This document shows, piece after piece, positions 1 through 41,283 of a stretch of DNA of 44,097 nt. The DNA is taken from the NCBI GenBank assembly GCA_020249005.1, contig JADCGN010000005.1:1-44097 (forward strand), given 5' to 3'. The notes below the pieces were generated by a model that saw only the letters and a program-made list of their open reading frames with translations, ran no database searches and was not told the DNA's origin. Origin of the DNA: Alphaproteobacteria bacterium. GTDB lineage: Bacteria; Pseudomonadota; Alphaproteobacteria; UBA2136; UBA6156. The number at the start of each line of letters is the position of its first letter. Position 1 is the first letter of the stretch. A program made the position numbers and the translations under genes.

Positions 1-1150
1 GGGTAAGCTGCCAACGGGTCTCGTGGGGGGTGGTAAGGCTTTGTATCCACCCCAAACGACTAAATTCCTGGAATTCCGTCATTTTCACGGCAGCCTCCCA
101 GGCATCATTACCGTAAGTTTTTTGTAGCTGTATGATGTCGACTCCCTCAGCGAGACGAAAACCCGTAAACAACGTCTCCTGGATGGTTCTTACCGGATTC
201 AGGGGTTCCCAACTGATAAAGTGTTTAAAGTCGGTCATTGTTCCGCGCAGGTAAGCCTCGGGGAGCTTGCGGTTGGCGGTGGCCACCCGGGTTCCGTCGC
301 CAAGTGTCACCCGCCCGTGCGCCCCAGCCCCAACTCCAAGGTAATCCTCACCCCGCCACACGCCTAAATTATGGCGGCAGGCCTCATCCGCCTTGGCGAA
401 ATTGGAAATCTCATAATTTTCGTACCCAAAACCCTGCAAAATCTCCCGTGTGGCCTCAAAAAAGTCGGCCTCCGCATCAGCCTCCAACGGTTGCCACAAA
501 CCCTTCCGAACTTGTCCCCAAAACGCCGTATTGCGCTCAACCGTGAGTTGGTAGGCGGCAATGTGGCTTAACCCGCGTCCAGCCAGCTCCTGCAACAGGG
601 CCTGCCAGGCGGGCAAATCCTGCCCCGGTAGACCATAAATTACATCGGCATTCACCCGAGCAAACACCCGCTGGGCGGCATCCAGCGTCGCCAACGCACC
701 AGTGGCCTGGTGGGTGCGGCCCAGAAAGTGCAACCAGTCATCCCGCAAGCCCTGTACGCCAATGCTCAAGCGATTCACGCCAACCTGATGAATTTCTTTA
801 AAATAACGAGCGCCCAAGTCTTCCGCCACGCTGGTTGGGTTGCACTCCAGCGTGACTTCGGTTGTGGCTTGCCACCGCCCCAAATGCTTGGCAGCCTGTA
901 AAATCAACTGAATATCTGATGGCTGCATTAAGCTTGGGGTGCCGCCTCCAAAGAAGATACTCTGCAACGGGCGTTGCGGCGCAATCTGCCCGCACCACCA
1001 TTTAATTTCTTCAATAATCTTAGCGATATAGGCTTGACGAAGGGGGTCTGGCAGCCCGCTTTGGGGTATGGCGTGGCTGTTGAAATCACAGTACGGGCAC
1101 TTGGCCTTACACCAAGGCCAATGAACGTAAAGATGGAGGGGCGCTGACAT
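1..1150 (-). CDS. hemW: Radical-SAM heme chaperone HemW (coproporphyrinogen III oxidase-like); C-terminus runs off the left edge
   Basis: Absent from the ORF track because it has no stop in the window. My reverse translation from the ATG at 1150-1148 reads MSAPLHLYVHWPWCKAKCPYCDFNSHAIPQ...SIFFGGGTPSLM...NRLSIGVQGL..., which contains the CxxxCxxC radical-SAM triad. The frame stays open to position 1. The gene lies 17 nt downstream of rdgB, the usual synteny. Confidence 0.85.
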   Translation of the reverse strand, partial: MSAPLHLYVHWPWCKAKCPYCDFNSHAIPQSGLPDPLRQAYIAKIIEEIKWWCGQIAPQRPLQSIFFGGGTPSLMQPSDIQLILQAAKHLGRWQATTEVTLECNPTSVAEDLGARYFKEIHQVGVNRLSIGVQGLRDDWLHFLGRTHQATGALATLDAAQRVFARVNADVIYGLPGQDLPAWQALLQELAGRGLSHIAAYQLTVERNTAFWGQVRKGLWQPLEADAEADFFEATREILQGFGYENYEISNFAKADEACRHNLGVWRGEDYLGVGAGAHGRVTLGDGTRVATANRKLPEAYLRGTMTDFKHFISWEPLNPVRTIQETLFTGFRLAEGVDIIQLQKTYGNDAWEAAVKMTEFQEFSRLGWIQSLTTPHETRWQLT

Positions 1151-1166
1151 CGAAGATTGATTTCAA

Positions 1167-1775
1167 TCACGCGGCAATTTTTAAGGCCGCCAACAAGGCG
1201 GATACAGCCAGCTGCCGGTGCTGCTTTACCTGCGCCGCTGGTTCGCCCCGTTCCAGCCGTACGGCATTCGTGAGATGATGGTTTTCTCCAATAAAAATAG
1301 AATCATAACCAAACCCCCCGTAGCCGCTGCGCACGGGCGCCACCATGCCACGGTCAACCCCTTCCACGACGAGGGTTGGTTGGTTGGGTCTGGCCAACGC
1401 CAATACGCAATGAAAGGCAGCGGTGCGCGGGGTTTGTGGCGGCAGAGCCGCAAACGTATTTAAAAGCTCATCAGGGCCAGCATAAGTGGCTGTATCAACA
1501 CCCAACAGGTGCGGCAAGGCTGCGACAAACAGACCGGAGTCATCGGCCAATGCCCAGTGGCCCGTGGCCTGCGCTAGAGTTTCCGCCTTAAGCCGTGCAT
1601 TTCCGGCCAAAGTGCCACCTTCGGCGGCGGTTAATTCAACGGGTAAGGCCACCCCCACGTCCTTAGCAGGGATGAAATGCCGTTTAAGTGGCTGGAGAAG
1701 AATCATAAACTCGGCAATTTTGCCCGAATTGCTGGTGGCGAGAACCACGAGGTCGGTTGGACGCGTCGCTAGCAT
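1167..1775 (-). CDS. rdgB: Non-canonical purine NTP pyrophosphatase (dITP/XTP pyrophosphatase, Ham1/RdgB family)
   Basis: 202-aa ORF with VLATSNSGKIAEF near the N-terminus and GYGGFGYDSIF near the C-terminus, both typical of the RdgB/Ham1 family. It sits between rph and hemW. Confidence 0.9.
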   Translation of the reverse strand: MLATRPTDLVVLATSNSGKIAEFMILLQPLKRHFIPAKDVGVALPVELTAAEGGTLAGNARLKAETLAQATGHWALADDSGLFVAALPHLLGVDTATYAGPDELLNTFAALPPQTPRTAAFHCVLALARPNQPTLVVEGVDRGMVAPVRSGYGGFGYDSIFIGENHHLTNAVRLERGEPAAQVKQHRQLAVSALLAALKIAA

Positions 1776-1916
1776 GTGGCTGGCATCGCGTGCGAACCGT
1801 CACACTGTCAAGCCATGAAACGTATGAAAAAACGAATTTTGGAGCTCCTTGGCAAAAAAGCCACAAAGTAGAATATCAGTAAGCGTTGACTCAAATTTGG
1901 AAATGTTTCGCGATCC

Positions 1917-2672
1917 CTAAGTTTCCAGGGCAGCCGTGAGTACTTGGCGCTGTAAATCGAAAAGCTCATAGAGGCCTTTTTGCGCCAGTTGCTGCATGGT
2001 GGTTAATTCCTGCGCAGTCACCGGCCGCTGTTCGGCACTCAGCTGGACTTCCACCCAATGGCCACTGCCCGCCATGACGAAGTTGCCGTCGGCGAGCGTG
2101 GTTGAATCTTCTTGGTAGTCCATGTCGAGCACCACGCCGTCCGATGTCAGACCACAGGAGATTGCGGCCACCTGATCCCGCAGGACCGGAGCGGCGCTCT
2201 TGAGCAGCCGGCGGCTTTGCAGATGGTGAACCGCCACGCTGGCAGCGAGGTAAGATCCTGTAATAGCAGCGGTTCTGGTACCGCCATCGGCCACCAATAC
2301 GTCGCAATCAAGCCATAAGGTAAAACCATCCAAGGCCTTAAGGTCGGTCACCGCCCGTAGGCTGCGACCGATCAGGCGCTGGATTTCAATCGTACGCCCT
2401 TCTTGTTTTCCCTTGGTGGCCTCGCGGTCTTTACGCTCATGGGTGGCCCGCGGCAGCATACCGTACTCCGCGGTCAGCCACCCCTGCCCTTTGCCGCGGA
2501 GCCAGGCGGGCACTTTGTCTTGCACGCTGGCCGTACAAAGCACCTCGGTCTTACCAAAGCGGATTAGGCAGCTGCCTTCGGCATGGGGGTTCACACCGGT
2601 GGTGACCTTCACCTCGCGCAGGTCATGCGCCAGGCGCTGATCATGGCGGAGTTTAGAGGGCGTGAGAGTCAT
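1917..2672 (-). CDS. rph: Ribonuclease PH
   Basis: Contains GSCLIRFGKTEVLCTASV, GWLTAEYGMLPRAT and DCDVLVADGGTRTAAITG, characteristic of RNase PH. I chose the internal ATG at 2672 (MTLTPSKLRHDQR...) over the track start at 2747, which adds an atypical extension. Confidence 0.92.
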   Translation of the reverse strand: MTLTPSKLRHDQRLAHDLREVKVTTGVNPHAEGSCLIRFGKTEVLCTASVQDKVPAWLRGKGQGWLTAEYGMLPRATHERKDREATKGKQEGRTIEIQRLIGRSLRAVTDLKALDGFTLWLDCDVLVADGGTRTAAITGSYLAASVAVHHLQSRRLLKSAAPVLRDQVAAISCGLTSDGVVLDMDYQEDSTTLADGNFVMAGSGHWVEVQLSAEQRPVTAQELTTMQQLAQKGLYELFDLQRQVLTAALET

Positions 2673-2923
2673 ACACATTCTTTCCAATTGGTCCTTGGCC
2701 TGTTCATACGAGAAACTTCTCAGGCCGTAAAATAAATAAATACTCACATCAGAGGGGCAAACTTCCCCGGCGCCGTTTAAAAATGTTTTTTAATGCCGAT
2801 TCAACGGTTCTCCAGTGTGGACCGTGTGAAGTGAAGGAGGTGCGAGAGTCTCATAATTGTAACATGGGTTCATGTGAAACAATGTTTCTCAAAAGTCTCA
2901 AGAAGAGTAATCTTAGTGCAACA

Positions 2924-3394
2924 CTAAACGTTGTCCTTAAACCACGTTGCAACATCCTGCGCCTGTTGAGCAGGTGTGACCTTAGGCCACACCATCCGCA
3001 CCATACCAGTAGGGTCGACCAACACGCTCATGCGAGCCATGCCCATGTAAGTCCGTCCATACATGCTTTTTTCCTGCCAAGCGCCGTAAGCATCGGCCAT
3101 AACGTGCTCGGCATCGCTCAACAAGTTAAAATTAAGCTGTTCTTTTTCAATGAACTTCTGTAAAAGGGCAGGCTTATCGGGCGAGATCCCCACCACCGTA
3201 ACGCCTAGTTGGTCCAGCAAGGCTTGATTGTCTCTGACGGTACAGGCCTGAACGGTGCAACCAGGGGTCATCGCCTTAGGATAAAAGTATATAAGCAACC
3301 ACGTACCACGGTAATCCTTCAAACTGCGTTGAACCCCTGTGGCGTCGGGCAAAGCAAACGCGGGGGCGGGGGTGTTAAGTATGGGGAGGGGCAT
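2924..3394 (-). CDS. bcp: Thiol peroxidase Bcp (peroxiredoxin Q family)
   Basis: FALPDATGVQRSLKDYRGTWLLIYFYPKAMTPGCTVQAC carries the peroxiredoxin PxxxT/SxxC active site. I chose the start at the ATG at 3394 (MPLPILNT...), which is preceded by AAGGAAC. The track start at 3490 adds an unlikely hydrophobic extension. Confidence 0.85.
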   Translation of the reverse strand: MPLPILNTPAPAFALPDATGVQRSLKDYRGTWLLIYFYPKAMTPGCTVQACTVRDNQALLDQLGVTVVGISPDKPALLQKFIEKEQLNFNLLSDAEHVMADAYGAWQEKSMYGRTYMGMARMSVLVDPTGMVRMVWPKVTPAQQAQDVATWFKDNV

Positions 3395-3482
3395 GGGGAG
3401 GTTCCTTATCGTTGCTGCAAACATAAGCAATAAGGCGTGGCAGGGCAAGTGTGAAAACGCGCAGAATAGCGCATAAAAGGCC

Positions 3483-3974
3483 ATGAGCAAAACTGTGAAA
3501 ACCCCTCAAAAATCGGTGGCCAAGTCTCAACAGACTGGTGCTTCCGTAAAATCTTCCAAAATCGTCGATAAATCAAAAGAAACAAAGTCTAAATCGAATG
3601 GCCCATGGCATTTTTTGGCGCCAATCGATGTCTCGCTGGAAAATCGGCCCATTTTACGCCCGATTAACCCCGGCGAACGTCAGCTGGATTTGGCGGTGCA
3701 AACCGGGCATGCAGCTTTGCCACAGGATGATCTGGTGCAGGTTGACGTTCGCTTAAGAGCCCAGATTTCAATTCCTGAAGGACTTGCAGTAGTGGCGGAA
3801 GTGCATTGTTTAGGTATTGCAATTAAGTCGAAAGGTAGTGACCAGATTGCCGAGTTGCAAGAACAACTCTATGGCCCCACCCGTGCAGCCCTTCAGACAG
3901 TCTTGGCTTTGGCCGGTCACACGCCACCCCTTCCCACCACGTTGCAGGAGATCTTATCTTTAAAAAACCAATAG
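3483..3974 (+). CDS. Hypothetical protein with a K/S-rich N-terminal tail; possible SecB-like fold (weak)
   Basis: 163-aa ORF in a visibly AT-richer stretch, followed by a hairpin plus T-run. The C-terminal half (VQVDVRLRAQISIPEGLAVVAEVHCLGIAIKSKG...LYGPTRAALQTVLALAGHTPPLP) resembles the SecB chaperone pattern by eye only. Confidence 0.5.
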   Translation: MSKTVKTPQKSVAKSQQTGASVKSSKIVDKSKETKSKSNGPWHFLAPIDVSLENRPILRPINPGERQLDLAVQTGHAALPQDDLVQVDVRLRAQISIPEGLAVVAEVHCLGIAIKSKGSDQIAELQEQLYGPTRAALQTVLALAGHTPPLPTTLQEILSLKNQ

Positions 3975-3995
3975 ATAAGCTTCCTTTTTATATTT

Positions 3996-4018
3996 CCCCC
4001 AGGCCCGGGGGATTTTTT
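3996..4018 (+). terminator. Rho-independent terminator candidate after the 3483-3974 ORF
   Basis: Stem CCCCC (3996-4000) pairs with GGGGG (4007-4011), followed by TTTTTT (4013-4018). Confidence 0.5.
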
Positions 4019-4135
4019 ATAGAATAATATCATATGATGCACTCATGCAACTTTTAAATAAAATTGGCACTTCTACAAAATTCTTTTAATCCATCATTTA
4101 AAGAACTTGAGCGATAGCGGTTGTGGCAAAGCCAA

Positions 4136-4159
4136 TAAAAAGCCGCCCGGCCGGGCGGC
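4136..4159 (-). terminator. Rho-independent terminator candidate after yggT
   Basis: The 18-nt perfect palindrome GCCGCCCGGCCGGGCGGC (4142-4159) is followed on the minus strand by TTTTTATT, just downstream of the yggT stop at 4182. Confidence 0.55.
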
Positions 4160-4181
4160 GATTTGGTGGGGTAAATTATTG

Positions 4182-4481
4182 TTATTGCGACATTTCCATC
4201 GCCATCCGGCTCAGGACTTTCAAAATTCCGGTGCGGACAAAGAAAATGATGGCGATGAGGGCCACGGGGGTGAGGTCCAAACCGCCGATCAAAGGAATGT
4301 AGGGGCGGAGCCTCTCAAACACCGGCTCGGTGAGGTTCCGGAGAATCCGTACCAATGGGTTGAGCGGGTCGGGGTTGGTCCAGGAAAGGATGACAGCCGC
4401 CAGAATCACGAACGTGTAGATCAACAACAGGTAATCAAGCAGCGTGACCGCCGAGTAGAGGGGATAACCGAGAGCGTACAT
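4182..4481 (-). CDS. yggT: YggT family integral membrane protein
   Basis: 99-aa hydrophobic ORF. The segment ILSWTNPDPLNPLVRILRNLTEPVFERLRPYIPLIGGLDLTPV is the typical YggT/Ycf19 core. Confidence 0.8.
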   Translation of the reverse strand: MYALGYPLYSAVTLLDYLLLIYTFVILAAVILSWTNPDPLNPLVRILRNLTEPVFERLRPYIPLIGGLDLTPVALIAIIFFVRTGILKVLSRMAMEMSQ

Positions 4482-4545
4482 GAGAGGGCACTTTCTTTCT
4501 GAGAAGTTTTATCATAGAGTGCGGCAAAACAAGGGAGATTTGCCC

Positions 4546-4842
4546 ATGAAACATGCAACCTTGCTACTCCTTGCCGGCCTGGCGCTGACCGTGGGGGGGG
4601 GTGCTAATGCGGCGACCGGCTTGCCGGTTGGCAGCGTGGCCTGCTTAAGTTTGAAGGATGCGCAGGATTATGCGCAATACCAACGGACCGCGCCCGATTT
4701 TGCCAAGGATCTCATGGCCCGGGCGGACTGCTACGTTATCCAAGAGCCGGCGGAAGCTGTGCAACAAGGTCGTCCGGAAGGCGGTTTCCAGGCCTACAAG
4801 TTGCTTTCTGGCCATAAGGTCTGGTTGCCAATCGCCCGTTAG
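4546..4842 (+). CDS. Small secreted protein, unknown function
   Basis: ATG at 4546 preceded by AAGGGAGA. Signal peptide MKHATLLLLAGLALTVGGGANA. Two cysteines. First gene of the co-directional block 4546-11097. Confidence 0.55.
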   Translation: MKHATLLLLAGLALTVGGGANAATGLPVGSVACLSLKDAQDYAQYQRTAPDFAKDLMARADCYVIQEPAEAVQQGRPEGGFQAYKLLSGHKVWLPIAR

Positions 4843-4878
4843 GTTGCGGGGGGTGCCGCAGGACCTTATGCTAAAAGC

Positions 4879-6156
4879 ATGAGGCAGGATTTTACCCCAC
4901 TGGTTGCGTTGCTAGTGTTAAATGCAGCTCTTGTGCTACAAGAGGTTAATGCCCAGATAAGCAATGAAGAGCTTCAAAGGTTTAGAACTCAAATTGAGGA
5001 TTTGAGAATCCAAGTAGGAGAAGAGGATTCCAAGACTTTGAGAAATGAACTGCAACAAAGTTCTCAAAATCTCGTCAATCAATTGGGCATTAGTCAATCA
5101 TTGGGTGTGAACCAGCGTGACTTCCCCTATTTGGGGAATGTCTATAACTCCGCCTGTAATTATGCTGGACGCGACAGTTTTCCACAATCCGTGGTGTGCA
5201 GTATTAAACCACCGTTAATAGCTAATACAGCAACTTATGAATATTGGGAACCAGCGGCAATTGTTGAAGTCTCCTGCCAAAAAGGCTTTAGTTTGTTAAA
5301 ACCCGGGTTCATGGGGCAGGGGGCCTCAATCGCCGGTAAACCGGTGCAGCCCGGCCAATGTGGCAGCGGGCCGAATTGGTTTTTCGAAGTCCGCGTATGG
5401 GCGTCAAACCCAGCCCCCAATGCCGACCGCCGGCTCAGTAGCTTAAGCTATCAGGAGTATTTATGGACGGGCCGGGGGACTTGTCACGCCGATGGTACCC
5501 AAAGAGCCTCCGAGTATGGCTATGGAAGGAAGAATAACTTTGCCAAAGGGCCGGCGACCGGACCGGGCGGAAGCTTTGAAGCCTATATTTCCGATAATGA
5601 TCCCGCCTGGTCGCGCCAACTCACGCCTGATCAGGCTACCCAACAAATGCAGCAAGCCAAAAAGCCGCCCGTCAACCAGCCTGAATGCCAAGAAAACACC
5701 CCGAATATCCAAGCCTGTTGGGGCGACCCAAGCCAACAAAACGGCTGGGTCACGCATCCCAACCGTGCCGTAGCCGCTGCGCTCGCTGGATATCGGGGGC
5801 TCCTCAAGGCACAGGGCATGAATCGGGTGGCCACGCCCATCCAAGCAGGCTGGCGGATGAGTATGGATTACCCGTTTGTCAAAAGCCCCTCCTCCTATGC
5901 ACAGGCGATGGGGATGCCCACGCAGGGCAACACCCGTCACCGGGGGTCGGATTGTTTTGTCCCCGGAGATGGTGGCGCGTGGTGGTTTACCACCGGCAGA
6001 CAAGGACGGAGCCCGCGCGCCTTGCAGGCTGTAACAAATCCTTCGGCAACAGCCAATGCAGATCTGGGCACCTACATCTTTTCTTATTGGGTCAAAACCA
6101 GCTGCACGGTTTACGATAAAAAAGGCGGAATTTGTCAGGATACTTACCATTATTAA
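4879..6156 (+). CDS. TraU-family (F-type conjugative pilus assembly) periplasmic protein homologue with an extra N-terminal coiled-coil segment
   Basis: Signal-like N-terminus. The motifs CSIKPPL...YEYWEPAAIVEV, NWFFEVRVW, ISDNDPAWS, GWRMSMDYPF and a C-terminal YIFSYWVKTSC align by eye with F-plasmid TraU (IGYWEP, FYHVHWY, EIDPTWTD, WRYQMVNMYP, YLMWRKRNC). Confidence 0.7.
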   Translation: MRQDFTPLVALLVLNAALVLQEVNAQISNEELQRFRTQIEDLRIQVGEEDSKTLRNELQQSSQNLVNQLGISQSLGVNQRDFPYLGNVYNSACNYAGRDSFPQSVVCSIKPPLIANTATYEYWEPAAIVEVSCQKGFSLLKPGFMGQGASIAGKPVQPGQCGSGPNWFFEVRVWASNPAPNADRRLSSLSYQEYLWTGRGTCHADGTQRASEYGYGRKNNFAKGPATGPGGSFEAYISDNDPAWSRQLTPDQATQQMQQAKKPPVNQPECQENTPNIQACWGDPSQQNGWVTHPNRAVAAALAGYRGLLKAQGMNRVATPIQAGWRMSMDYPFVKSPSSYAQAMGMPTQGNTRHRGSDCFVPGDGGAWWFTTGRQGRSPRALQAVTNPSATANADLGTYIFSYWVKTSCTVYDKKGGICQDTYHY

Positions 6157-6191
6157 TGTTTCACGCGTAACAACATAAAGAAAAGCGCTGC

Positions 6192-7034
6192 ATGAAAACC
6201 CCATATTTTATCCTAAGCGCAACACTGGTTGCAGGTACGGCGCTGGCCCAAACGGCGCTTGAACGCAAATACACGCCCTGCGTCGACTACTTCCAAGTTG
6301 GCGGAAGTCGTTGCGCCGCTACAGCCAGTCCGGCAATAGCCCCTGCCCCACCCAACCCTGTACCAACGGCCCCGGCAGCACGGCCCGCCACCGACCCAGT
6401 CCAAGCCTTTCTGGATAACCACGGCAAGCCGCCGCGTGAGTTCGCCGAATTCTATGTGAATCCTACCCCTGAGAACGCCCGTCGTTGGGTCGAGGCGTTT
6501 CGCGCGCAGCAGAGCAAGGCGAACGCCATGGCCGAGGCCTGGCGGCAGGCGGAACGGGCATTTCCAAGCCCAACCGAGTTGCCACGTCCGGCGTCAGCTC
6601 CAGCCCAGCCCGTTGCAGCCCCGGTTGCGGCACCAATGGCAACTCCCACAGCGCCAACCCCCACGGCCCCTCGCCTAGGCCGCTTTGCCACACCTGCCGA
6701 ACAGCTCCCCATCCTGGTGTATTATTTTAGTGCCAGTTGCCCCTTTTGTGCCCGGTTAAAGCCCGACCTGATGGCCATCACCCAAGCCACCCAAGGCAAG
6801 TTACTATTTACTTGCGTCGATCTTACGCCGCTTTCGCCGCGCCAGGCACCCAGCCCAGGCAACCGGACAGGGTTGCCGTGTGACTGGCGCTTGCCGCAAC
6901 CGGGCGAATTAGAACGGCTGCAAATCCGCCAAACCCCCACGTTGCTGATCAGTCGGCCCGGCCAAGGCGGCCAGCGCTTGACGGGCATCATTCCGCCGAG
7001 CCAGCTACAAACGGCCTTATTTGGCCAAAATTAA
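6192..7034 (+). CDS. TraF/TrbB-like thioredoxin-fold periplasmic protein
   Basis: Signal peptide MKTPYFILSATLVAGTALA. Contains the TraF-type segment FYVNPTPENARRWVEAFRAQQSKANAMAEAWRQAE, a Pro/Ala-rich linker, and a thioredoxin-like domain with YYFSASCPFCARLKPDL (CxxC). Confidence 0.7.
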   Translation: MKTPYFILSATLVAGTALAQTALERKYTPCVDYFQVGGSRCAATASPAIAPAPPNPVPTAPAARPATDPVQAFLDNHGKPPREFAEFYVNPTPENARRWVEAFRAQQSKANAMAEAWRQAERAFPSPTELPRPASAPAQPVAAPVAAPMATPTAPTPTAPRLGRFATPAEQLPILVYYFSASCPFCARLKPDLMAITQATQGKLLFTCVDLTPLSPRQAPSPGNRTGLPCDWRLPQPGELERLQIRQTPTLLISRPGQGGQRLTGIIPPSQLQTALFGQN

Positions 7035-7136
7035 AGATTTTTAAGGTGTGACTCGCGCGGCCCTGTCAGGTGGCCTTGCGTGGTGATCGATAGGGACTTG
7101 TCAGCAACCCCGAGAAAGAACAAGAATTGGTGTATC

Positions 7137-7478
7137 ATGGTTGAACTTGCCCAAGGCTCGAATAACCTCTCGCTGCATAAGCCTGAAGAGGTGGGATTGG
7201 CCCGTAGCCGGCTGATATGGGTAATGAAACCCTTAGGATTCCTCGTATTAGTCCTCTGGGTGCTGCATCCGGGCGTGAGTGACCGGGCGGAAATCGGCAC
7301 GATGCTGTTGCTGGGGTTCTTGTTAGGCGCAGCTTACGGCCTGGTGCACTATGGCGCCCAACTACGCCAATATCTTACCCTGCGCCCTTTGGCGGCCCGG
7401 CAGCAGAGCAACCGTATTCCCGCCGAATATTACTGGGGCGAAATCAATCAAGTGTTGTATGATAACAACGCGCGCTAA
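7137..7478 (+). CDS. Small two-helix membrane protein, candidate detached membrane anchor of the downstream coupling-protein ATPase
   Basis: Two hydrophobic helices (LGFLVLVLWVLHPGV and IGTMLLLGFLLGAAYGLVHYG). It ends 23 nt before the ATPase gene, in a different frame. The start is uncertain: GTG 7080, ATG 7137 or ATG 7224. Confidence 0.45.
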   Translation: MVELAQGSNNLSLHKPEEVGLARSRLIWVMKPLGFLVLVLWVLHPGVSDRAEIGTMLLLGFLLGAAYGLVHYGAQLRQYLTLRPLAARQQSNRIPAEYYWGEINQVLYDNNAR

Positions 7479-7501
7479 GAATTTGAAAGATAATTAAGCC
7501 A

Positions 7502-8932
7502 ATGGCAAACTCTCAGCTTTTCCTGCCGGCCGACCTGATGAGCCGGCATTGCCTTGGCGTGGCGGCCACCGGGAGTGGGAAGAGTAACTTCCTGAATTTA
7601 ATTCTGAAACAGCAGATGATGCGCGGGGGCGGTGTCATTCATATCGACGGGAAGAACAACAAGGACGCGATCCGTGAGTTCTTAACGCTCGCCAAGCAGC
7701 ACAACCGCTGGCACGACGTGCGGATCATTAACATCGACGACGCGGCCCATTCCAATACTTACAATCCGTTGCTGCGCGGGGATGCCGAAGAAATCACCAC
7801 GCGGATCATGCTGCTGCTGCAGGGGGGTGGAAAGGACAGCTACTTTCGCAGCCAAGCGGGGAAGGCCGTGGGTGCGATTATCGGACTCATGCGGGATATG
7901 GGCCTGCCCTTTAACTTCAGTGATTTGAATGCGGTGTTCAGCAGCGAAAGCCTGCTGCGCTACCTGCTGAAGGAGGGACCGAAGGATACCGAAAGTTATG
8001 CGAAGTTCCGGATTTTCTTCGACCAACTGCACGAGGACGACAAACGCACCGGGATGCGGGTACTCAACACCAAGGTCTTTCAGCATACCTTTGGCGACTT
8101 AACCGGGAAAATCGCCAGCTACGACCGTGGCGAAGCTGGGCGGGTGCTCAACGCCTACAACCCAGAGGTGGACCTGCTGCGGGCCATTAAGGAAAACCAA
8201 TTGGTTTACATTGGCTTGCCGATGCTTTCCAAGGCCGAGGTGGCGAGCGACTTTGCCAAGATTCTGCTCTCTGACCTGCGCACCGCGGTGGGGCAACTGC
8301 AGAATATTCCGCCCGAAGAACGCCCTAGCCCAACTTTTTTGGTGTTGATGGACGAGTTCAGCAGTTACGCGATGTCGACCCTCGCCCCGTTGTTCGAACA
8401 GGCCCGCAGCGCCAATATCAGCCTGTTTCCGTTCATTCAGACGATTAGTTCGCTGTCCGACAAAGACCGCGGCCTGAGCCAAGACTTTGCCTATAAGATT
8501 TTGGGGAACACGCTGAGCAAGATCAGCTTTGGTTTGAAAGACCCCGAAAGCGCGGAAATGATGAGCAAAATGGCGGGGCAAGCGCTCAAAGAGTTCGTCA
8601 GCCAGAGCTACAGCGAAAATCTGGGCTTTGCCAGCGGTGACCAGGATGCTAGCATGCTGCTGACCACCAACCGCGGCCGGGGGTACAGCAAGAGCACGCG
8701 GGTGGAATATGATGCCGTGGCTCGCCCGGAGGATTTCACCAACCTTAAGACTGGGGAGGCCATCTATATGGGCCCCAGCGGGGTGATGAGGCTGAAGGTG
8801 CCGTTTGTGAAGCTGAAGAAAGACGGTGACGCGCTGGATTTTCCCCGCTTCCGCATGCCCCTGGTGCCGGGCATTGGCTTGGCCGAAAAATACGGGCAAT
8901 TCGCCGTCGGTAGCCCAGAACGGAGAGGGTAA
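7502..8932 (+). CDS. Type IV coupling protein-like P-loop ATPase (TraD/TraG/VirD4 superfamily) lacking its own transmembrane region
   Basis: Walker A GVAATGSGKS at residues 20-29, Walker B PTFLVLMDEFSSYA, and the downstream FEQARSANISLFPFIQTISSL pattern typical of TraG/VirD4-type coupling ATPases. No hydrophobic N-terminus. Confidence 0.7.
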   Translation: MANSQLFLPADLMSRHCLGVAATGSGKSNFLNLILKQQMMRGGGVIHIDGKNNKDAIREFLTLAKQHNRWHDVRIINIDDAAHSNTYNPLLRGDAEEITTRIMLLLQGGGKDSYFRSQAGKAVGAIIGLMRDMGLPFNFSDLNAVFSSESLLRYLLKEGPKDTESYAKFRIFFDQLHEDDKRTGMRVLNTKVFQHTFGDLTGKIASYDRGEAGRVLNAYNPEVDLLRAIKENQLVYIGLPMLSKAEVASDFAKILLSDLRTAVGQLQNIPPEERPSPTFLVLMDEFSSYAMSTLAPLFEQARSANISLFPFIQTISSLSDKDRGLSQDFAYKILGNTLSKISFGLKDPESAEMMSKMAGQALKEFVSQSYSENLGFASGDQDASMLLTTNRGRGYSKSTRVEYDAVARPEDFTNLKTGEAIYMGPSGVMRLKVPFVKLKKDGDALDFPRFRMPLVPGIGLAEKYGQFAVGSPERRG

Positions 8933-8935
8933 TCA

Positions 8936-9226
8936 ATGTCTTGGATTGAGCGCTTGGCCCATTTTTATGTGAATGTGGTGGAACCGATCGCCCAAGTGCT
9001 GTTGGTGCTGATTGTGGTAATCTTGCTGCTTGGGATTATTAACTTTATTCGCGATCCAAAGGCCAAGGAAAATCTGATTAAAACCCTCATTAACTTGATT
9101 ATGAAGACCCTTAAGCTGAGTTTGGTCACGTTGGGCGCGTTGTTGAAAGGAACCTTGGAATTGTTGCAAAAATCCATCAAGGTTATTTTTGCAGCATTTC
9201 GTGACTTCTTTAGCTCGAAAATCTGA
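8936..9226 (+). CDS. Small membrane protein, unknown function
   Basis: ATG at 8936 preceded by GGAGAGGG. One strong TM helix (IAQVLLVLIVVILLLGIINFI). Visibly AT-rich; a hand count of row 9001-9060 gives 24/60 G+C. Confidence 0.55.
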   Translation: MSWIERLAHFYVNVVEPIAQVLLVLIVVILLLGIINFIRDPKAKENLIKTLINLIMKTLKLSLVTLGALLKGTLELLQKSIKVIFAAFRDFFSSKI

Positions 9227-9280
9227 TTGCAGCCGCCTTGAACTCTGTTAGCATGCCCTTACCAAGAAGAGGGGCAGGCG

Positions 9281-10276
9281 ATGGGCCAGGCATTCCAAAA
9301 CAATGAGAAAAACCCAGCTGGGGCAGCGCGGTTGCCTTGGCTTCCCGCATTGGCAGGTGTGGCATTCCTGGCAGCTTGCCAGCCGATGTTGGGGCGGGCA
9401 CCGGGCCAGCCGGTGGTGCAGGCGGCTTATCAGGCTGAAGACACCAGCCTGAACGCGCTGCAGCCAGCGGCCGGCCCGCAGCAGTCTCAGGCGGCCTACC
9501 CCCAACCGATGCCCCAGGCCTATGCCCCCATGCCTTATCAAGCGGGCTACCCCATGTATCCCACCAATGCGTTGAGCACGTTGGAAGGCAACCAGCAGGC
9601 CCTGCAGCAGCGCTTGGAGCGGATTGAACAGGCCTTGCTCCGGCTCGACAAACGCATGCAGCTGGTGGAACGCAATGAACTGGGCCGGATGAGTGGCGCC
9701 AACCCGGCCAGTGTGCCCACCACGCCTGACGTGCTTGGCCAAGCCCCGACGGCCATCCCGTTGGCACAAACGGTGCGGCAGGCCATGCGGGAAGACTGGG
9801 GCAGCGATATTCTGCCCCCCAGCCTGGCCGCCGGCGTGGCGCAGGCGCCCGAAGCGCCGCCCTATGCCGCCGGCTTTGCCCCCGTGAGCCAAGTTGATAC
9901 CACCATCCGCAGCACACTGCAGGCGGCGCCCAACCGGCTCCCTTCATTGGCCGACCAAACCCCGGCGGCAGCCGGGCGGATTCCGCAAAGCGCCGGCAAC
10001 ATGGCGGTCTGGACGGTACGCTACGAGCCGAGCAAGGTTTGGCCCGACCGTAGCCAACTGGCGGCCAGCCGCGGCGTGGTGGAGCTGTTGCGGAACTCGC
10101 AAACCGTCACCTTGGTGGCGCGCGGCCCCAATCCTACCCGGCCGGAATTCCAGGAACGCGTGCGGGCGCTCTCCCGCTATTTATCGAAGGTGGCGGCGCT
10201 GGAAACGGTGCCGATCAGTACCTTGGCCACACCGCAGCTGGATGCCGATACCATTGAAGTGCTGGCCACGCCCTAA
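9281..10276 (+). CDS. Lipoprotein with a Pro/Gln-rich region and a coiled-coil segment, unknown function
   Basis: Lipobox AFLAAC after a positively charged N-terminus. Coiled-coil-like LEGNQQALQQRLERIEQALLRLDKRMQLVERNEL. A C-terminal globular part of about 90 aa. No family recognised. Confidence 0.6.
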   Translation: MGQAFQNNEKNPAGAARLPWLPALAGVAFLAACQPMLGRAPGQPVVQAAYQAEDTSLNALQPAAGPQQSQAAYPQPMPQAYAPMPYQAGYPMYPTNALSTLEGNQQALQQRLERIEQALLRLDKRMQLVERNELGRMSGANPASVPTTPDVLGQAPTAIPLAQTVRQAMREDWGSDILPPSLAAGVAQAPEAPPYAAGFAPVSQVDTTIRSTLQAAPNRLPSLADQTPAAAGRIPQSAGNMAVWTVRYEPSKVWPDRSQLAASRGVVELLRNSQTVTLVARGPNPTRPEFQERVRALSRYLSKVAALETVPISTLATPQLDADTIEVLATP

Positions 10277-10455
10277 CGGGCCTTAACGGGCGAAAGAATA
10301 ATCGTGCTGGAGTTGGTGGCAGCCCCTTGTGGGAACGCCATGGCTGGCCCTAAGGTAGGATCTGTTGCAGCTGGTTAGCTGTGGCGACTCTGGAACGGTG
10401 AGGCGTGCGTGTCTTCCCGTTCAAAGTGCGTAATAACAATGGAGCACCTACCCCC

Positions 10456-11097
10456 ATGAGCGATGGCCAATTCCCCTCAGCCAACCCCGCCGCCCCCCAA
10501 TCCCCCATTTCCGCCGGGAACGAAAGCAGCTTTGAAGCCGCCCTTGGCGCCGTGTTGAACAAGTATATGAACAAGGGCAATCCGCAGTTTCGGGCCCGTT
10601 TGCTGAACCAGATGGTGCAGCTGGCGCGTCACGGCAACTTTGCCGAGACCTTCATCCGTACCACGCCGGAAGGCACCGACATGGTGAACTTTGCCCGCCT
10701 GTGGGAGTACGTGCTGGTGCAGGCCGACCGCGGCACCCGTGGCTATGTGGCCAAAAACAGCCGCGCCGAATTTGAACTGACGCGCAAGGACTTTGAAGAT
10801 TGCGTGGAGTTTATGGTGGCCCGCCTGCAGGCCGCCAGCAAGCGCCACAAGCTGGATCTCAGCGGCACCAACTTTATTTCCCGCGTGGCCCAACGCTATG
10901 GCATTGCCGAGAAGGTACGTAAGGGCCCAGCCCAAACCCCGCCGCAGCAGCCCAAAGCCGTGGCTGCCCAACCGGCGGCGGCGCCCCAACCAGTCGCCGC
11001 GGTGCCCGCCCCAGCCATGGTGAGCGAAGAGCCCGCCGCCAAGCCCAAGCGGGTGGCCAAGCCCAAGGTTGAAATGCCGGACGTGGATGCCCTCTAA
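10456..11097 (+). CDS. Hypothetical cytoplasmic protein with a Pro/Ala/Lys-rich tail
   Basis: ATG at 10456 (MSDGQFPS...) with GGAG 11 nt upstream. High third-position G+C. The 3' end overlaps the xseA start by 11 nt. Confidence 0.55.
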   Translation: MSDGQFPSANPAAPQSPISAGNESSFEAALGAVLNKYMNKGNPQFRARLLNQMVQLARHGNFAETFIRTTPEGTDMVNFARLWEYVLVQADRGTRGYVAKNSRAEFELTRKDFEDCVEFMVARLQAASKRHKLDLSGTNFISRVAQRYGIAEKVRKGPAQTPPQQPKAVAAQPAAAPQPVAAVPAPAMVSEEPAAKPKRVAKPKVEMPDVDAL

Positions 11098-12274
11098 CGG
11101 GGACGTGTTGGCCGAGCCGTTGACGGTTTCGGCCGTCAGCGCCTTGGTGCGCGGGCAGGTGGAGGCCGTGGGCCCGGTTACGGTGGTGGGGGAACTTTCC
11201 GCCCCCAAAGTACACAGCAGCGGCCATTTTTATGCCGACTTGAAAGATGCCTCCAATACCCTGGCCGTGGTCGCTTGGCGCAGCACGGTGGAGCGCTGGG
11301 CCGGCATCCCGACCCACGGCCAGCTGGTGGAAGTGCGCGGCAAGCTGACGACCTACCCGGCCCGCAGCAGCTACCAATTGCAAATCACCAGCCTGCAACC
11401 GGCCGGGCAGGGGGCCTTGCTGGCCCAGCTGGAAGCTTTGAAAGCCAAGCTGCAGGCCGAAGGCCTGTTTGCCGCCGAACGCAAGCGCCCGTTGCCGTTC
11501 CTGCCCGCGCGGATTGGCATTGTCACCAGCCCCACCGGGGCGGTGATTGCCGATATGCTGGCGCGCATTCAGGCGCGCTGTCCGCGGCCGGTGTTGTTGG
11601 CGCCCACCGCGGTGCAGGGGCCGGAAGCGCCGGGCCAAATCGCGGCGGCGATTGCCGCCTTGCATGCGCTTCCCATGGAACAACGGCCCGAACTTATCAT
11701 CGTGGCCCGGGGTGGCGGCAGCTTGGAAGACCTGATGGCCTTTAACAGCGAACAGGTGGTGCGGGCGGTGGCGGCCAGCGTAATTCCGGTGATTTCCGGG
11801 GTGGGCCACGAGCCGGACGTGACGCTGTGTGATTTTGCCGCCGACGTCCGCGCCGCCACCCCCACCGCCGCCGCCGAATTGACCGTGCCGGTGCGGGCCG
11901 ATTTGTTAGCCACCTTGGCGGCCGAGCAGGCCAGTCTGCAGCGTATGGTGCAGCAACAGCTGGCCCTGCTGCACACCCGCGTAGCCACCGCCCAACGGCT
12001 GTTGCCTGAACCGACGCGCCTGTTGTTACAGGCCAATCAACGCTTAGGAGACCTGGGCCAACGGCTGCACCACAGCGGCCCACAGGCGGTGCGCCAGGCG
12101 CGCCAGGCGCTGACCCAGGCCGAGCGCGTGTTGGCCGCCCATCACCCGGAAGCGCCGCTGCAGCGTGGCTATGTTTTGCTCTGGCGCGATGGCGCGGTGC
12201 TGGCTGCCGACAGTGCACCGGGGCCCGCCGAGGTGCAATTTGCCCACGGACGCCGCCGCGCAACCTTGCATTAA
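11087..12274 (+). CDS. xseA: Exodeoxyribonuclease VII large subunit
   Basis: OB-fold N-terminus LTVSAVSALVRGQVEAVGPVTVVGELS...HSSGHFYADLKD, followed by RIGIVTSPTGAVIADM and IIVARGGGSLEDLMAFN, typical of XseA. I chose the ATG at 11087; the track start at 11069 is a TTG. Confidence 0.88.
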   Translation: MPSNGDVLAEPLTVSAVSALVRGQVEAVGPVTVVGELSAPKVHSSGHFYADLKDASNTLAVVAWRSTVERWAGIPTHGQLVEVRGKLTTYPARSSYQLQITSLQPAGQGALLAQLEALKAKLQAEGLFAAERKRPLPFLPARIGIVTSPTGAVIADMLARIQARCPRPVLLAPTAVQGPEAPGQIAAAIAALHALPMEQRPELIIVARGGGSLEDLMAFNSEQVVRAVAASVIPVISGVGHEPDVTLCDFAADVRAATPTAAAELTVPVRADLLATLAAEQASLQRMVQQQLALLHTRVATAQRLLPEPTRLLLQANQRLGDLGQRLHHSGPQAVRQARQALTQAERVLAAHHPEAPLQRGYVLLWRDGAVLAADSAPGPAEVQFAHGRRRATLH

Positions 12275-18052: not shown

Positions 18053-21000
18053 TTAGCGTGGCGTGGCAACGGTGGGCGACGCGGTGGCGGTGGGCGAGGG
18101 GCTGGTGTCGCTCAGCGCTTTGGTACCGCGGTGAATGAACACCCCGGTGGGGCTGCTCGCCCGAGCGGTATCGACGGTGTCGGTGTCTGGTGCATCCGCC
18201 GCCGTTGCTTCGCTTGTTTCGGTCACAGTTGCCGCCACGGCAGCAGTGCGAGACACATTCAAGCTGTTGGTGGGGCTGGTCGCCGTGGCACTGCGGGGAG
18301 TGGTGGTGGCGCTGGTGGCCGCTTGTGTGGCTTGAGTTTCGGCTTGGCTGGCGGCGCGGGCGGCCTGCGCTTGCCGCGCGGCCTGAGCCGCCGCCAACAA
18401 TTCGGCCGCTGCGGAACTGTTCTGGCCTTGCCGCACGGCGCTGCGTTCCCGCAGGCTTTCTTGGGTCTGCAGGCCGCGAATGAGGGTGGCATAAGCCAAA
18501 CGTGGGCTGTGCAGATGGTGCGCGCCACAGGTAATCGGCCCACCCAAGGTTTGGCACTTCACCGCCGCCCGTACGGTCTGGCCGCTGGTGGGCAGGGGGT
18601 AGCTGAAGGTAAAGGCGCTGGTGAGCGTGGTGGGGTCAAATTCGCCGGTAAAGGAAATTGGGCTGCTGCGTGCCGGGTGTTGCAGGGTGCCCAGCAACGG
18701 GTATACATCGCCGCGGAAGCCGTAGTCGGCACTGGCGGGTTGGGTGGTGGGCGCGGTTTGCAGCATGAGGATGCTGCCTGGTGGTAGAATATGCGTGGCT
18801 TCGGCGGGTTGCGGGGTCAGGGTTTGTTCCAGCGGGGTAGTGAGCGCGTACTGCCCGTCTGGAATCAGCACGGCCGCCGGGTTGGCCAAAATGCGCGAGA
18901 GCCGCAACACCACGCCATCGCGCAAGTGGGCTTCCAGCAAAGTACCGGTGGGATTGGGTTTAAACTGTAGTTTGCCGAAGTTACCGTACACGCTGGCCAG
19001 GCTGGCGCCCCCTGGGGCCGCCGCCAGCACGGCGGGTGTCAACTCCAGCGTACGGGTCCCAAAGCTGAACGGCGCGGTCAAGGTCAGCCGCTGCAGGGTG
19101 GCGGGGGTGCTGGTCAGCGTGGCGGGGTTGGTGCTGGCCAAGGTACCCAGGCGGTTCAGGAAGGTGAGGCTGATCTCGCCCAAGGCACCGCCCTGCAGCC
19201 CCAGGGGGCTCACCACCAAGCTCGCCAACGGCGCTTCCGGCGCGGCCGACAGTGGCACATAGACCCCCGCCACCGCCGCCAACCGTTCATTCAGCTTATC
19301 AAAGACCGGCGCGGCCTGCTCCAGCCAGGCGGCTTCGGTCAATTGATTGAGGCTGCTGGCGGCCAAATCGGGTTGGTTGGCAGCGTCGGCATCCATCGCT
19401 TTCATCAGCGCGGCAAACTGCGGCCGAATCGCGCGAATCACGGTGCGCACCGGGGCGGTGGCGTTGTCCCACAAGGTGCGGCTTTCGGCCACGGTGGTGG
19501 CGCGGGCTAAGGCCGTTTCCAGCAACGGCGCCAGCGGCAGCGTGGGGTGCACCACGGCCAAGTTGCCGGCCAAGGCGCTTAAGCCGGCGGCGTCGAGGGT
19601 GCTATCCTGCTGGGCCGCCCCCACGATGGCGGCATTGAGCCAGTTGGCCAAGCCGGCTTGGTCGTCGGCCGGGAACAGCGGCAGCAAGCGGTGCATCGCG
19701 GTGGGTGGGCCGTACACCCCTTTGGCGCCAGCCACCAGGGTGTTGAGTTGGCCGCGTAATACCTCGGGCTGGGCGGCAAAGTAGTCGGTCATGAAGTCCC
19801 ACAAGGGGCCCAAGTCCAGCGCCACCGCCTCCCGCGGTTGCAGCAGCAGGGTGGGGCTGGTGGCATTCAGCTGGGCCGCCACACCGTTGGCGAGGTTGCT
19901 GGCAGTAAATTCCTCCAGCAGCAACGCGGCGAGATCCAGCGGCAAATCCAGCGTGGTGTTGATGAGGGTGCTGGTGCTCACCGCTTGGGTGAAATCGCCT
20001 TGGCGCAGATTGGTGCGGATCGTCTCCACCAGCAGCGGCACCACCAATTGGCGGTTGTTGGCGGCAGCCTGCGGCCGGGCCTGGGCCAATGCCAGCGTGG
20101 CGGTAATTTGCTTGGTGGTGGCGGCCTTCACCAACAGTGTGCTGGCCAATTTATCCAGCTGCACCTGCTGGACACTGGGCAAGCTGAGTTGGCTGGCCAA
20201 TTGCAGCAACGGGGCTGCCAATTCGGGGCGGTTCTGCAGCCGCTGTGCCGCCTGCAACAGGGCATTGCCCAATTGGCCGGTGCTGGGCCCGCTCAGGCGG
20301 CCGGTTTGGAACGGGGCAGCCAGTTCGGGCAGCGTGGTGTGGCTGGCGGCGGCCGCCACCAAGGCCGGCAGGTAAGCTTGCCAGAGGGCCGGTTGATTGG
20401 CATTCAGGCGGAGGCTGGTGCGTTGCAAGGCCAAGGCCAGCGGGCCGGCGTTGGCAGTCTCCCACCCTTGGGCCCAAACCTTTTGCCAGGCAGGCTGCGC
20501 GGCCAGTTGTGCCAGTTCTTGGGCCGCCGCTGCAGCCTGGGTGGGGTTGGCCAAGGGGCCTAAGGTGCCCGATGTTTCCAGCATTACCGGCAGCGCCGCC
20601 AAGGTTTCGGCCGTGGTGGCGCCCGCGGACTGCCGGAGTATGTGGGGCAGCAGCGCCAGCGCGCCGGGGGCGTCATACGCCAAAGTGGGTTTGGCGCGTA
20701 GTGCGGCCGCCATGCTGGCCCGGTCGTCGGTCGCACCGTTCAGCAACGCGCGCAACAGGGTGGCGCTGTAGCGCAGCCCGGTGGGAAGGGCGGCAGTTTG
20801 CGCCAACGCGGCCAACTGGGCGCTCGCGGCCTTGGCGTTGCCCTGACGCAACTGCTGCAACGCCGGTTGCCATAGGCTGCTGCGCTGCGCGGCTTGCAGC
20901 GCGGTGGGCAGGCTGGTCTGCAGTGCCAGCAACGCCGCCGGTTGGGTCGGCAGCGCCGCAAAGGCGGTGGTGGCGCTGGCCACCACCCCGTTGGCGCTGA

Positions 21001-21340: not shown

Positions 21341-21413
21341 AACAGAGGGCGCGTTTGGCTTTTTTCTTGCGCCCACTCTGGCAGGGGCGCATGCTCTTTG
21401 CTAGAGTCACTTC

Positions 21414-38274: not shown

Positions 38275-38637
38275 TTACTGCGGCTGGCTGAGCCCAATCC
38301 GGTTCCCTTCCGAATCCTGAATTTCCGCCACCAGGCCGTAGCCGCTGTCGGTGGCGGGGAAGAGCACCTTCGCCCCGGCCTGTTCGGCGCGTGCCAGTGT
38401 GGCGGCCAGGTTGGAGACGCCTAAATACAGCAGCACGCCTTGGGTGGTGGGCCGGTAGATTTCGCCCTGGGCCAAGGCCCCGGTAATCCCGCGGCTGCTT
38501 TCCTGCAGCGGAAAAAACGCCATGCGGTTGCCGTGAATGGTTTCTTCGGTAAAATCATAGCCAAACACCGCCGTATAAAATTGCTTGGCGCGGGCCAGGT
38601 CGGTGACCGGAATTTCAAAATAAATGGCAGGCTTCAT
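38275..38637 (-). CDS. VOC (glyoxalase/bleomycin-resistance/dioxygenase) family protein
   Basis: IYFEIPVTDLARAKQFYTAVFGYDF...GYGLVAEIQDSEGNRIGL is the typical VOC fold pattern. The start is uncertain: ATG 38637 gives a cytoplasmic form, and ATG 38736 would add a signal-like peptide. Confidence 0.7.
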   Translation of the reverse strand: MKPAIYFEIPVTDLARAKQFYTAVFGYDFTEETIHGNRMAFFPLQESSRGITGALAQGEIYRPTTQGVLLYLGVSNLAATLARAEQAGAKVLFPATDSGYGLVAEIQDSEGNRIGLSQPQ

Positions 38638-38862
38638 GGCGTAGGCTTTCACGGGTGGCATGGCAAAGATGGGGGCCCCGGGCACCAAGCCCAGCCCAAG
38701 CAACAGCAGGGCCAGGAGACGGGGGTGGCACACCATGGGCGGTACCCTAGCAATCCGGTGTGGGCCGCGCAAGCGCCGCGCGCCCCCCACGTACGTACGC
38801 GCCCGGGTGCGCAGGGAAACAGCCTTGACAGCGCCCGCTGTATCCAGCTACCCGTGAAAGCG

Positions 38863-41196: not shown

Positions 41197-41283
41197 GCGG
41201 GTATTTTGGCGAAATCTCCCCCAAGTGGGGGTTGTATACCCCATACAATCTCACTATAACATGAACAGCACTTCCCTAGGCTA

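Follow-up and report, generated by a model that had tools for sequence, protein, structure and literature searches.

An operon-like block of coupling-type ATPase, TraF-like and TraU-like genes beside yggT in uncultured Alphaproteobacteria

Contig JADCGN010000005.1, from an uncultured alphaproteobacterium (assembly GCA_020249005.1), was analysed over its whole length of 44,097 nt, hereafter the window. Open reading frame (ORF) calling on this 44,097-bp contig placed eight co-directional ORFs, encoding products P1 to P8, on the + strand at 4546–11097, between yggT and xseA (Table 1). This is the arrangement described in an initial annotation made from the DNA letters alone, and Pfam matches confirm that both flanks are housekeeping genes. 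The overlap of 11 nt that had been noted between the last gene of the block and xseA was also borne out, with the xseA ATG at 11087 and the P8 stop codon ending at 11097. The gaps between the block genes are 3–179 nt, giving an operon-like packing, and a scan of the block for internal terminators found no convincing one. The ORF of P4 is open from 7080, and its start was set at 7137 (MVELAQG), where relatives and conservation begin. In the public NCBI annotation (locus tags INF43_), P5 is a “TraM recognition domain-containing protein” and P8 is hypothetical. The block joins an ATPase of the type IV coupling protein (T4CP) kind to TraF- and TraU-like proteins, and is probably a conjugation-derived envelope machine that has been put to another purpose.

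Table 1. Genes of the block and its two flanks, with positions in the window
Gene or product	Position	Strand	Description
yggT	4182–4481	−	Divergently transcribed flank; Pfam YGGT, E 2e-15
P1	4546–4842	+	Small secreted protein, 98 amino acids (aa), predicted signal peptide, two conserved Cys
P2	4879–6156	+	Putative divergent TraU-family periplasmic protein, 425 aa
P3	6192–7034	+	TraF/TrbB-like periplasmic protein; TraF-type N-terminal region and C-terminal thioredoxin fold with CPFC
P4	7137–7478	+	Predicted inner-membrane protein, 113 aa, two transmembrane (TM) helices
P5	7502–8932	+	Soluble T4CP-type (TraD/VirD4/DotL-like) hexameric-type ATPase, 476 aa
P6	8936–9226	+	Membrane protein, 96 aa, C-terminal RDFF.SKI
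P7	9281–10276	+	Lipoprotein, lipobox Cys33
P8	10456–11097	+	Predicted cytoplasmic helical protein; 213 aa in the NCBI model
xseA	11087–12274	+	Exonuclease VII large subunit, 3′ flank; Pfam Exonuc_VII_L, E 5e-80

The initial annotation identified P5 as a coupling ATPase of the TraD/TraG/VirD4 type, and several lines of evidence agree. P5 passes three T4CP models in Pfam: TraG-D_C (PF12696; 42.5 bits against a cutoff of 22), T4SS-DNA_transf (PF02534; 38.7 against 20.1) and TrwB_AAD_bind (PF10412; 29.9 against 20.5). It also matches the NCBIfam model TIGR03743, SXT_TraD, with an E-value of 1.5e-32. Its scores stay far below the NCBIfam cutoffs of the named T4CP subfamilies (112.8 of 366 bits for TIGR03743, 70.6 of 647 for TIGR03754, 46.4 of 800 for NF041447). 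The best solved relative is DotL/IcmO of Legionella (6sz9, E 5e-15), for which residues 4–438 of P5 align with residues 116–590 of 783. Walker A (G24-x-G26-K27) and Walker B (D284-E285), like R302 and Q313, show conservation of 97% or more among 117 family members. These data make the classification of P5 as a T4CP-type ATPase solid at the level of sequence. The family comprises about 80 homologue clusters that are 57–97% identical, all of about 470 aa. No hydrophobic segment occurs in the P5 polypeptide, and hence no N-terminal TM anchor; Walker A comes 19 residues after the start. Directly upstream of P5, in the window and always in relatives, lies P4, with TM segments at residues 24–47 and 52–71 and with cytoplasmic ends that are highly conserved in the alignment. 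This arrangement suggests that P4 may be the membrane anchor of the P5 ATPase.

P2, which was called TraU-like in the initial annotation, has an N-terminal signal or TM segment (hydrophobic residues 5–25) and 10 Cys; seven of the Cys positions never vary in an alignment of 12 sequences, and a further two are almost invariant. Direct searches did not support the call: neither P2 nor 11 close homologues matched TraU in Pfam (E ≤ 1) or NCBIfam, a PDB search with P2 found no match, and tblastn of P2 against 72,556 plasmids found none either. When the 12-sequence alignment was compared by hhalign with F-plasmid TraU alone, the probability was 3.7%, and only the YWEP stretch was aligned. The call is nevertheless supported transitively. 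A P2 profile (A1) of 12 sequences, searched against 1.84 billion representatives, yielded 44 proteins, and it matches P0153 (E 4.8e-14) and P0158 (E 6.8e-12), which are positional orthologues of P2 in the same yggT-adjacent block of other lineages. P0153 and P0158 reach 42.4 and 35.2 bits against the Pfam TraU model (PF06834; cutoff 26.5), and P0158 spans positions 37–304 of 306 in that model. A locally iterated P2 hidden Markov model (HMM) lifts F-plasmid TraU from 8.2 to 28.8 bits, in an alignment where YWEP.A, Y.SE.DP.W and CWG..GWV follow in the same order. Searched against 920 ORFs, the iterated HMM had a single significant match, the annotated TraU of a Variovorax plasmid (E 1.7e-5). Because the positional orthologues pass the Pfam TraU model and the iterated profile reaches F TraU, the view that P2 is a highly divergent TraU-family protein is convincingly, albeit indirectly, supported. 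As a separate observation, about 135 residues of the TraU-like profile, its C-terminal third, recur at the C-terminus of much larger proteins of about 450–1378 aa (P0142–P0172), one of which carries an N-terminal M23 peptidase domain.

The identification of P3 as TraF/TrbB-like with a CPFC thioredoxin motif is marginal but consistent. P3 narrowly passes the Pfam TraF model (PF13728; 25.5 bits, cutoff 23), and it scores 28.4 bits against Thioredoxin_2 (PF13098; cutoff 27), but it falls far below the TIGRFAM cutoffs for TIGR02740, TraF-like (E 8e-6, 25.2 of 232 bits), and TIGR02738, TrbB (16 of 132 bits). Weak or faint TraF matches recur among orthologues of P3, which was found in every relative examined; relatives and other comparison loci are designated here by L numbers, and the orthologue in L016, at 22.4 bits, is just below the PF13728 cutoff. 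CPFC is kept in most lineages, with SDPNS in its place in L005 and QGPYD in L009. Presence of the CXXC is uncoupled from that of TraU, since L009 has TraU without a CXXC and L007 has a CXXC without TraU. A tblastn search of P3 against the 72,556 plasmids found no match. When the block families were compared by hhalign with all F-plasmid Tra/Trb proteins and the genes of L011 and L012, the only matches were those of P3 to a 281-aa protein of L012 (97%) and to the CXXC region of TrbB (33%); P4 gave nothing.

For the remaining small secreted, membrane, lipoprotein and PAK-tail products, which the initial annotation did not recognise, searches agree: P1, P6, P7 and P8 matched no Pfam, NCBIfam, PADLOC or PDB entry. 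Orthologues of P1 occupy the same position in L001–L009 and L014–L016. P6 has one long hydrophobic segment, amphipathic helices and an invariant C-terminal RDFF.SKI. It was considered as a T4SS_pilin protein, at 19.2 bits against a cutoff of 26.6; the match is taken as compositional because it lies below the cutoff and P6 has no cleavable signal peptide. P7 is present in all relatives examined. Its lipobox Cys33 is invariant, its linkers are disordered and rich in Pro and Gln, one coiled-coil segment (LRLDRRMQLVERNELGRM) does not vary, and the C-terminal domain, about 90 aa long, is conserved. A PDB profile search with P7 returned nothing meaningful, and an OmpA-like assignment of the C-terminal domain was dropped for lack of Pfam support in seven orthologues. 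P8 consists of a near-invariant core and a disordered Pro/Ala/Lys tail that ends in a conserved KPKR..KPK..PDVDAL; no other products of the block are as conserved as P8 and P5. Its family comprises 208 homologue clusters, all unnamed and without Pfam domains. The AlphaFold2 model of P8 has a mean predicted local distance difference test (pLDDT) score of 64, with a helical core at residues 23–150 (pLDDT 70–87).

Domain searches of every sizeable ORF in the window found no VirB4, relaxase, integrase or other family of a type IV secretion system (T4SS), and a repeat scan found no flanking repeats or oriT-like repeats around the block; on these points the initial annotation was correct. No tRNA gene lies near the block, the nearest being 17 kb off. 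Among the genes called within about 10 kb on either side of the block in relatives, there is again no integrase, relaxase or other T4SS gene. The earlier view that the block is not the edge of an ordinary integrative and conjugative element (ICE) is strongly supported by its occurrence at the same chromosomal site beside yggT in relatives and by the absence of integrase, att and tRNA marks. Genes for a phage-type integrase and an AlpA-like protein are inserted upstream of a DUF3576 gene in one relative (L002:1581–3473), about 6 kb from the block; this island is separate from the block and is absent from the window and from L001.

About 10 lineages of relatives were compared, with about 10–33 kb around the block inspected in each. 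The operon adjoins yggT in all but one of them, so that yggT is a conserved landmark beside the block across almost the whole clade; the exception, L014, keeps the gene order elsewhere in the chromosome. The window and the relatives with the block together span 33–63% in GC content, those relatives in which it adjoins yggT covering 46–59%; the ATPases of the relatives are 38–97% identical to P5. Six of them, L001–L006 (ATPase 89–97% identical), have the same eight genes followed by xseA. Identity falls to 70% in L007/8, where TraU is absent, to 61% in L009, which has a 532-aa TraU-like protein, and to 59.5% in L018, which has a Pfam-positive TraU. In L014 (48%; locus GC 33%) and L015 (38%), TraU is absent. 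An extra secreted protein of 190–236 aa lies between TraU and P3 in three TraU-bearing lineages, L009, L016 and L018. P3-P4-P5-P6-P7 make up the constant core, which P1 and P8 usually accompany. Recurrence in related genomes had been proposed as a check on the initial annotation; the gene set does recur without other tra genes within about 10 kb, with TraU lost in some lineages. The 3′ junction is more variable. The xseA junction is the same or nearly so in L001, L002 and L005, and it is not found in L007, L009, L014, L015 or L018. In most relatives the block is followed, instead of by xseA, by a conserved set of genes that includes a pilus-type secretin cluster, as in L007 (13589–21443), L009 (15701–21416), L015 (12952–17215) and L018 (10091–14090). 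The products of this set are three proteins of about 100–114 aa, about 450–470 aa (encoded on the opposite strand) and about 414–441 aa (with a weak match to TcpQ), together with an MshL-like secretin, a GspE/PilB-like ATPase and a platform protein of the T2SSF family.

The block genes are under strong purifying selection. In comparisons of the window, L001 and L002, synonymous sites are saturated; the nonsynonymous divergence (dN) of P5 is 0.04–0.06 and its omega about 0.02–0.03. The dN of P5 is lower than that of xseA (0.12–0.19) and similar to that of yggT, and omega for the other block genes is about 0.3 or less where it could be computed. Base composition changes along the window, from 50–60% GC at positions 1–10500 to 65–70% at 11000–44097, and GC at third codon positions (GC3) is about 0.5–0.77 on the left and about 0.8 on the right. 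A similar step is present in L001, L002 and L005 despite kept synteny. Recent horizontal transfer was considered as an explanation for the low GC content of the block and was rejected, because rph, rdgB and bcp share the low GC content and relatives repeat the pattern.

Outside the clade, ATPase identity drops abruptly to about 30–35%. The closest proteins, at about 33–34%, are T4CPs of 570–590 aa that carry about 95 extra N-terminal residues, their TM region, compared with P5. Among them, the Sinimarinibacterium T4CP stands in a context of TraN, a 706-aa protein, TraH, the T4CP itself, proteins of 81 and 370 aa and an integrase, and the T4CP of a Variovorax plasmid follows TraU, TrbC and TraN. 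Homologues of TraU, TraW, TrbC and TraF are restricted to the mating-pair formation types MPF-F and MPF-G, with TraF found in MPF-I too (PMC4027160). An F-like origin is suggested because the nearest outside T4CPs sit in F-like clusters and because the TraU and TraF families are confined to MPF-F/G, or also I in the case of TraF. The simplest history would be the capture of part of an F-like transfer region in the ancestor of the clade, followed by its reduction. A further locus, L012:1-21419, is mobile-looking, with RadC, ParM-like, SLT, DUF1173 and AcrVA2-like genes. It encodes an anchor-less T4CP-like ATPase of 472 aa, 35% identical to P5 and followed by a UvrD-type helicase, and may represent a second kind of element that uses a P5-type ATPase.

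Taken together, the data favour, with somewhat better than even confidence, a reading in which the block is an autonomous, anciently domesticated and vertically inherited envelope ATPase operon, derived from an F-like (MPF-F/G type) system and serving a core chromosomal function in this uncultured clade of Alphaproteobacteria. The initial annotation had suggested a domesticated or minimal envelope-spanning ATPase system, and the fixed location, the purifying selection and the intact catalytic motifs support that suggestion. In the working that we propose, P5 would be an active hexameric ring-type ATPase, with P4, and perhaps P6 as well, tethering it to the inner membrane. Its cytoplasmic partner would be P8, which could be an adaptor or the substrate itself; the basic-then-acidic C-terminal tail of P8 presumably resembles the C-terminal docking or translocation signals recognised by coupling proteins. 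P3, P1 and, where present, P2, all of them Cys-containing and secreted, would form a periplasmic and outer-envelope assembly with the lipoprotein P7, in which P3 may act as a chaperone or disulfide isomerase in lineages that have the CXXC and as a structural partner in those that have lost it. ATP hydrolysis by P5 would power the movement of a macromolecule, whether a protein or a nucleic acid, into the envelope or across it. In this proposal the physical complex and its topology are conjectural, as are the part played by P8 and the kind of substrate, and any particular substrate is much less likely than the general class of an autonomous module. More speculatively, and at well under even chances, the anchor-split T4CP ATPase, the TraF/TraU-type proteins, the coiled-coil lipoprotein and P8 may constitute an unrecognised VirB4-free envelope translocation or assembly machine, possibly one that feeds the neighbouring MSHA-like secretin or pilus apparatus, and may be near-essential in an uncultured, order-level clade of Alphaproteobacteria.

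Several observations weigh against the idea of an autonomous, domesticated operon. The absence of transfer genes covers the window and about 10 kb on either side of the block in relatives, and it is for this span that the statement in the initial annotation that the block stands without the rest of a T4SS holds. We know of no function for a T4CP without a VirB4-containing channel. TraW, TrbC, TraN, TraH and TraC were not detected in the window or in the loci of relatives; in the F system, TraU and TraF act within a complex of TraH, TraW, TrbC and TraN (PMC7555446), and here these partners are not detectable. The gene content of the block also varies. Four lineage groups have TraU and three (L007/8, L014 and L015) do not; L018 has no P1, and a search of the L014 locus did not find P8. 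In L016, which is a single Logan contig, the block includes TraU, a TraF-like gene, P6, P7 and P8, but it has no ATPase gene and P4 is cut short (5624–6618); this could be either a real loss or an assembly artefact. Because the ATPase, TraU, P1 and P8 are each missing in some lineages, the parts of the block are not all obligatory. Comparisons of individual proteins add to these difficulties. P4 was considered as the detached N-terminal TM region of a T4CP, and no sequence similarity to that region of full-length T4CPs was found, so the anchor role of P4, and with it the notion of a split T4CP, is argued from gene architecture. No homologues of P1, P6, P7 or P8 were detected in the F plasmid or in the elements L011, L012 and L017. 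The AlphaFold2 model of P2 has a mean pLDDT of 55, and Foldseek searches of the PDB with the models of P2 and P8 gave no match at E < 1; a PDB profile search with P8 returned nothing meaningful.

Alternatively, the block may be one piece of a complete but dispersed T4SS or conjugation system, with the remaining genes, for VirB4/TraC, a core complex, pilin and perhaps a relaxase, elsewhere on the chromosome and P5 serving as an ordinary substrate receptor. The rvh T4SS genes of Rickettsiales are scattered on the chromosome in this way. In its favour, T4CPs, TraU and TraF are known to work only within a full T4SS (PMC7555446; PMC4027160). Against it stand the lack of any other T4SS family in the window or within 10 kb either side across about 10 lineages, an ATPase that has lost its own anchor and forms a distinct, tightly conserved clade that shares no more than about 33% identity with bona fide T4CPs, and the dispensability of TraU in several lineages; we regard a dispersed system as unlikely. 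A different kind of partnership is suggested by the secretin set, since the block is followed by the same homologous genes in L007/8, L009, L015 and L018. The block might then work with a pilus-type secretin machine (MshL-like secretin, GspE/PilB-like ATPase, T2SSF and TcpQ-like proteins), as a hybrid of a T4CP and an apparatus resembling a type IV pilus or type II secretion system, in which the T4CP motor and its periplasmic partners would pass a substrate on to the secretin or pilus or assist in its assembly. However, the window's own clade has xseA at that place and no secretin-set gene was found in the 44-kb window, the adjacency may be mere conserved synteny, and we know of no precedent for a hybrid of T4CP and secretin. 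Such a hybrid seems distinctly improbable.

Two further explanations are contradicted by the pattern of conservation. Defence against phages or plasmids, built around a HerA/T4CP-like ATPase, was considered given that a PADLOC scan matched P5 to mad8 (E 1e-20). The other seven block products have no PADLOC match, however, and the other mad genes of MADS are not among them; secretion or a membrane location is predicted for five of the eight products; and defence islands do not resemble the block in its fixed location, deep vertical inheritance or very slow evolution. We give a defence role very little credence. Finally, the block could be a decaying, functionless remnant of an integrated conjugative element. 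Its components are of conjugative origin, several of the block genes have a lower GC and GC3 than the right-hand part of the window, and one relative lacks the ATPase gene. Yet ORFs and catalytic residues are intact across saturated synonymous divergence and a GC range of 33–63%, the ATPase is more conserved than xseA, and there are no integrase genes or att repeats; the low-GC stretch, moreover, also spans rph, rdgB and bcp and recurs in relatives. Decay is consequently the least credible explanation and has almost no claim to belief.

If the reading as an autonomous, domesticated operon is true, a T4CP motor is useful outside a canonical T4SS, although T4CPs, TraU and TraF are textbook conjugation-only parts. 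The block would offer a reduced natural system for asking what TraF and TraU bind and do, and for asking how a coupling ATPase engages a partner, for which P8 with its C-terminal tail is a ready candidate. TraU and TraF belong to the least understood proteins of F-type systems; as of a 2020 review, F-like TraF/TrbB and TraU were without a solved structure (PMC7555446). The analysis also flags four conserved, unannotated families, P1, P6, P7 and P8, of which P8 alone has more than 200 sequence clusters.

The genes recognised in the rest of the window are housekeeping genes. Upstream of the block lie rdgB, rph, bcp, a SecB-like gene and yggT; directly 3′ are xseA, an M23 peptidase gene, lpxK, waaA and kdsB, followed farther 3′ by genes for glycosylases, a hybrid histidine kinase and lipopolysaccharide or sugar functions, mutS, topA and two tRNAs. 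Between bcp and yggT, positions 3483–3974 (+) encode a conserved 163-aa protein with no Pfam match of its own. In L015 and L016 the corresponding position holds genes called as SecB (PF02556), which its family profile matches with E-values of 9e-5 and 5e-16, and on this evidence it is a divergent SecB-like chaperone with a Lys-rich N-terminal extension. A 1107-aa ORF at 18053–21376 (−), with a coding-like GC3 of 0.80, an N-terminal lipobox (LAGC) and no Pfam or NCBIfam match, appears to encode a large lipoprotein outside known families. The long ORFs at 38848–39909 and 39934–41244, on the strand opposite topA (38440–41196, +), are antisense artefacts that arise from the high GC content.

The recognisable parts of the block can be compared with known systems. 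P5 has the same ATPase fold and motifs as T4CPs such as TraD of the SXT/R391 and PFGI-1/TOL elements and DotL. It differs from them in having no N-terminal TM anchor, with a separate two-TM gene, P4, upstream; in having, at least locally, no VirB4, relaxase or linkage to a mobile element; and in belonging to its own highly conserved chromosomal clade. DotL has a C-terminal adaptor-binding tail, which P5 lacks, and neither Pfam nor NCBIfam matched P4, P6, P7 or P8 to the Dot/Icm coupling partners DotM, DotN, IcmS and IcmW. TraU of F is periplasmic and rich in Cys, and both DNA transfer and mating-pair functions depend on it. P2 resembles it in its signal peptide, its roughly 10 Cys and the collinear YWEP.A, (A)Y.S(E/D).DP.W and CWG..GWV motifs and C-terminal W.+..C. 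In contrast to F TraU, P2 is about 95 aa longer, with an N-terminal coiled region, it occurs without TraW, TrbC, TraN, TraH or TraC, and it has been lost in several lineages. P3 has the two-part architecture of F TraF and TrbB, a TraF-type N-terminal region with a C-terminal thioredoxin fold, but hhalign of P3 with F TraF is not significant and P3 has no TraH partner. In the F plasmid, TrbB has a CXXC and TraF does not (PMC7555446); the CXXC of P3, kept in most lineages and lost in some, mirrors this split.

As a whole, the block resembles the exapted T4SSs, such as Dot/Icm, the VirB/D4 effector systems and the DNA-secretion system of the gonococcal genetic island, in being chromosomal, conjugation-derived and, on our reading, used beyond self-transfer. 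To our knowledge, the known exapted systems all retain VirB4 and the core channel, whereas the block retains, at least locally, only a coupling ATPase and F-specific periplasmic proteins. A literature search for an orphan chromosomal system of T4CP, TraU and TraF found no description of one. The parts are of a known kind, and what is new is their combination with an apparent lack of VirB4, an ATPase apparently split from its anchor, a fixed location with deep vertical conservation, and dedicated partners from unnamed families.

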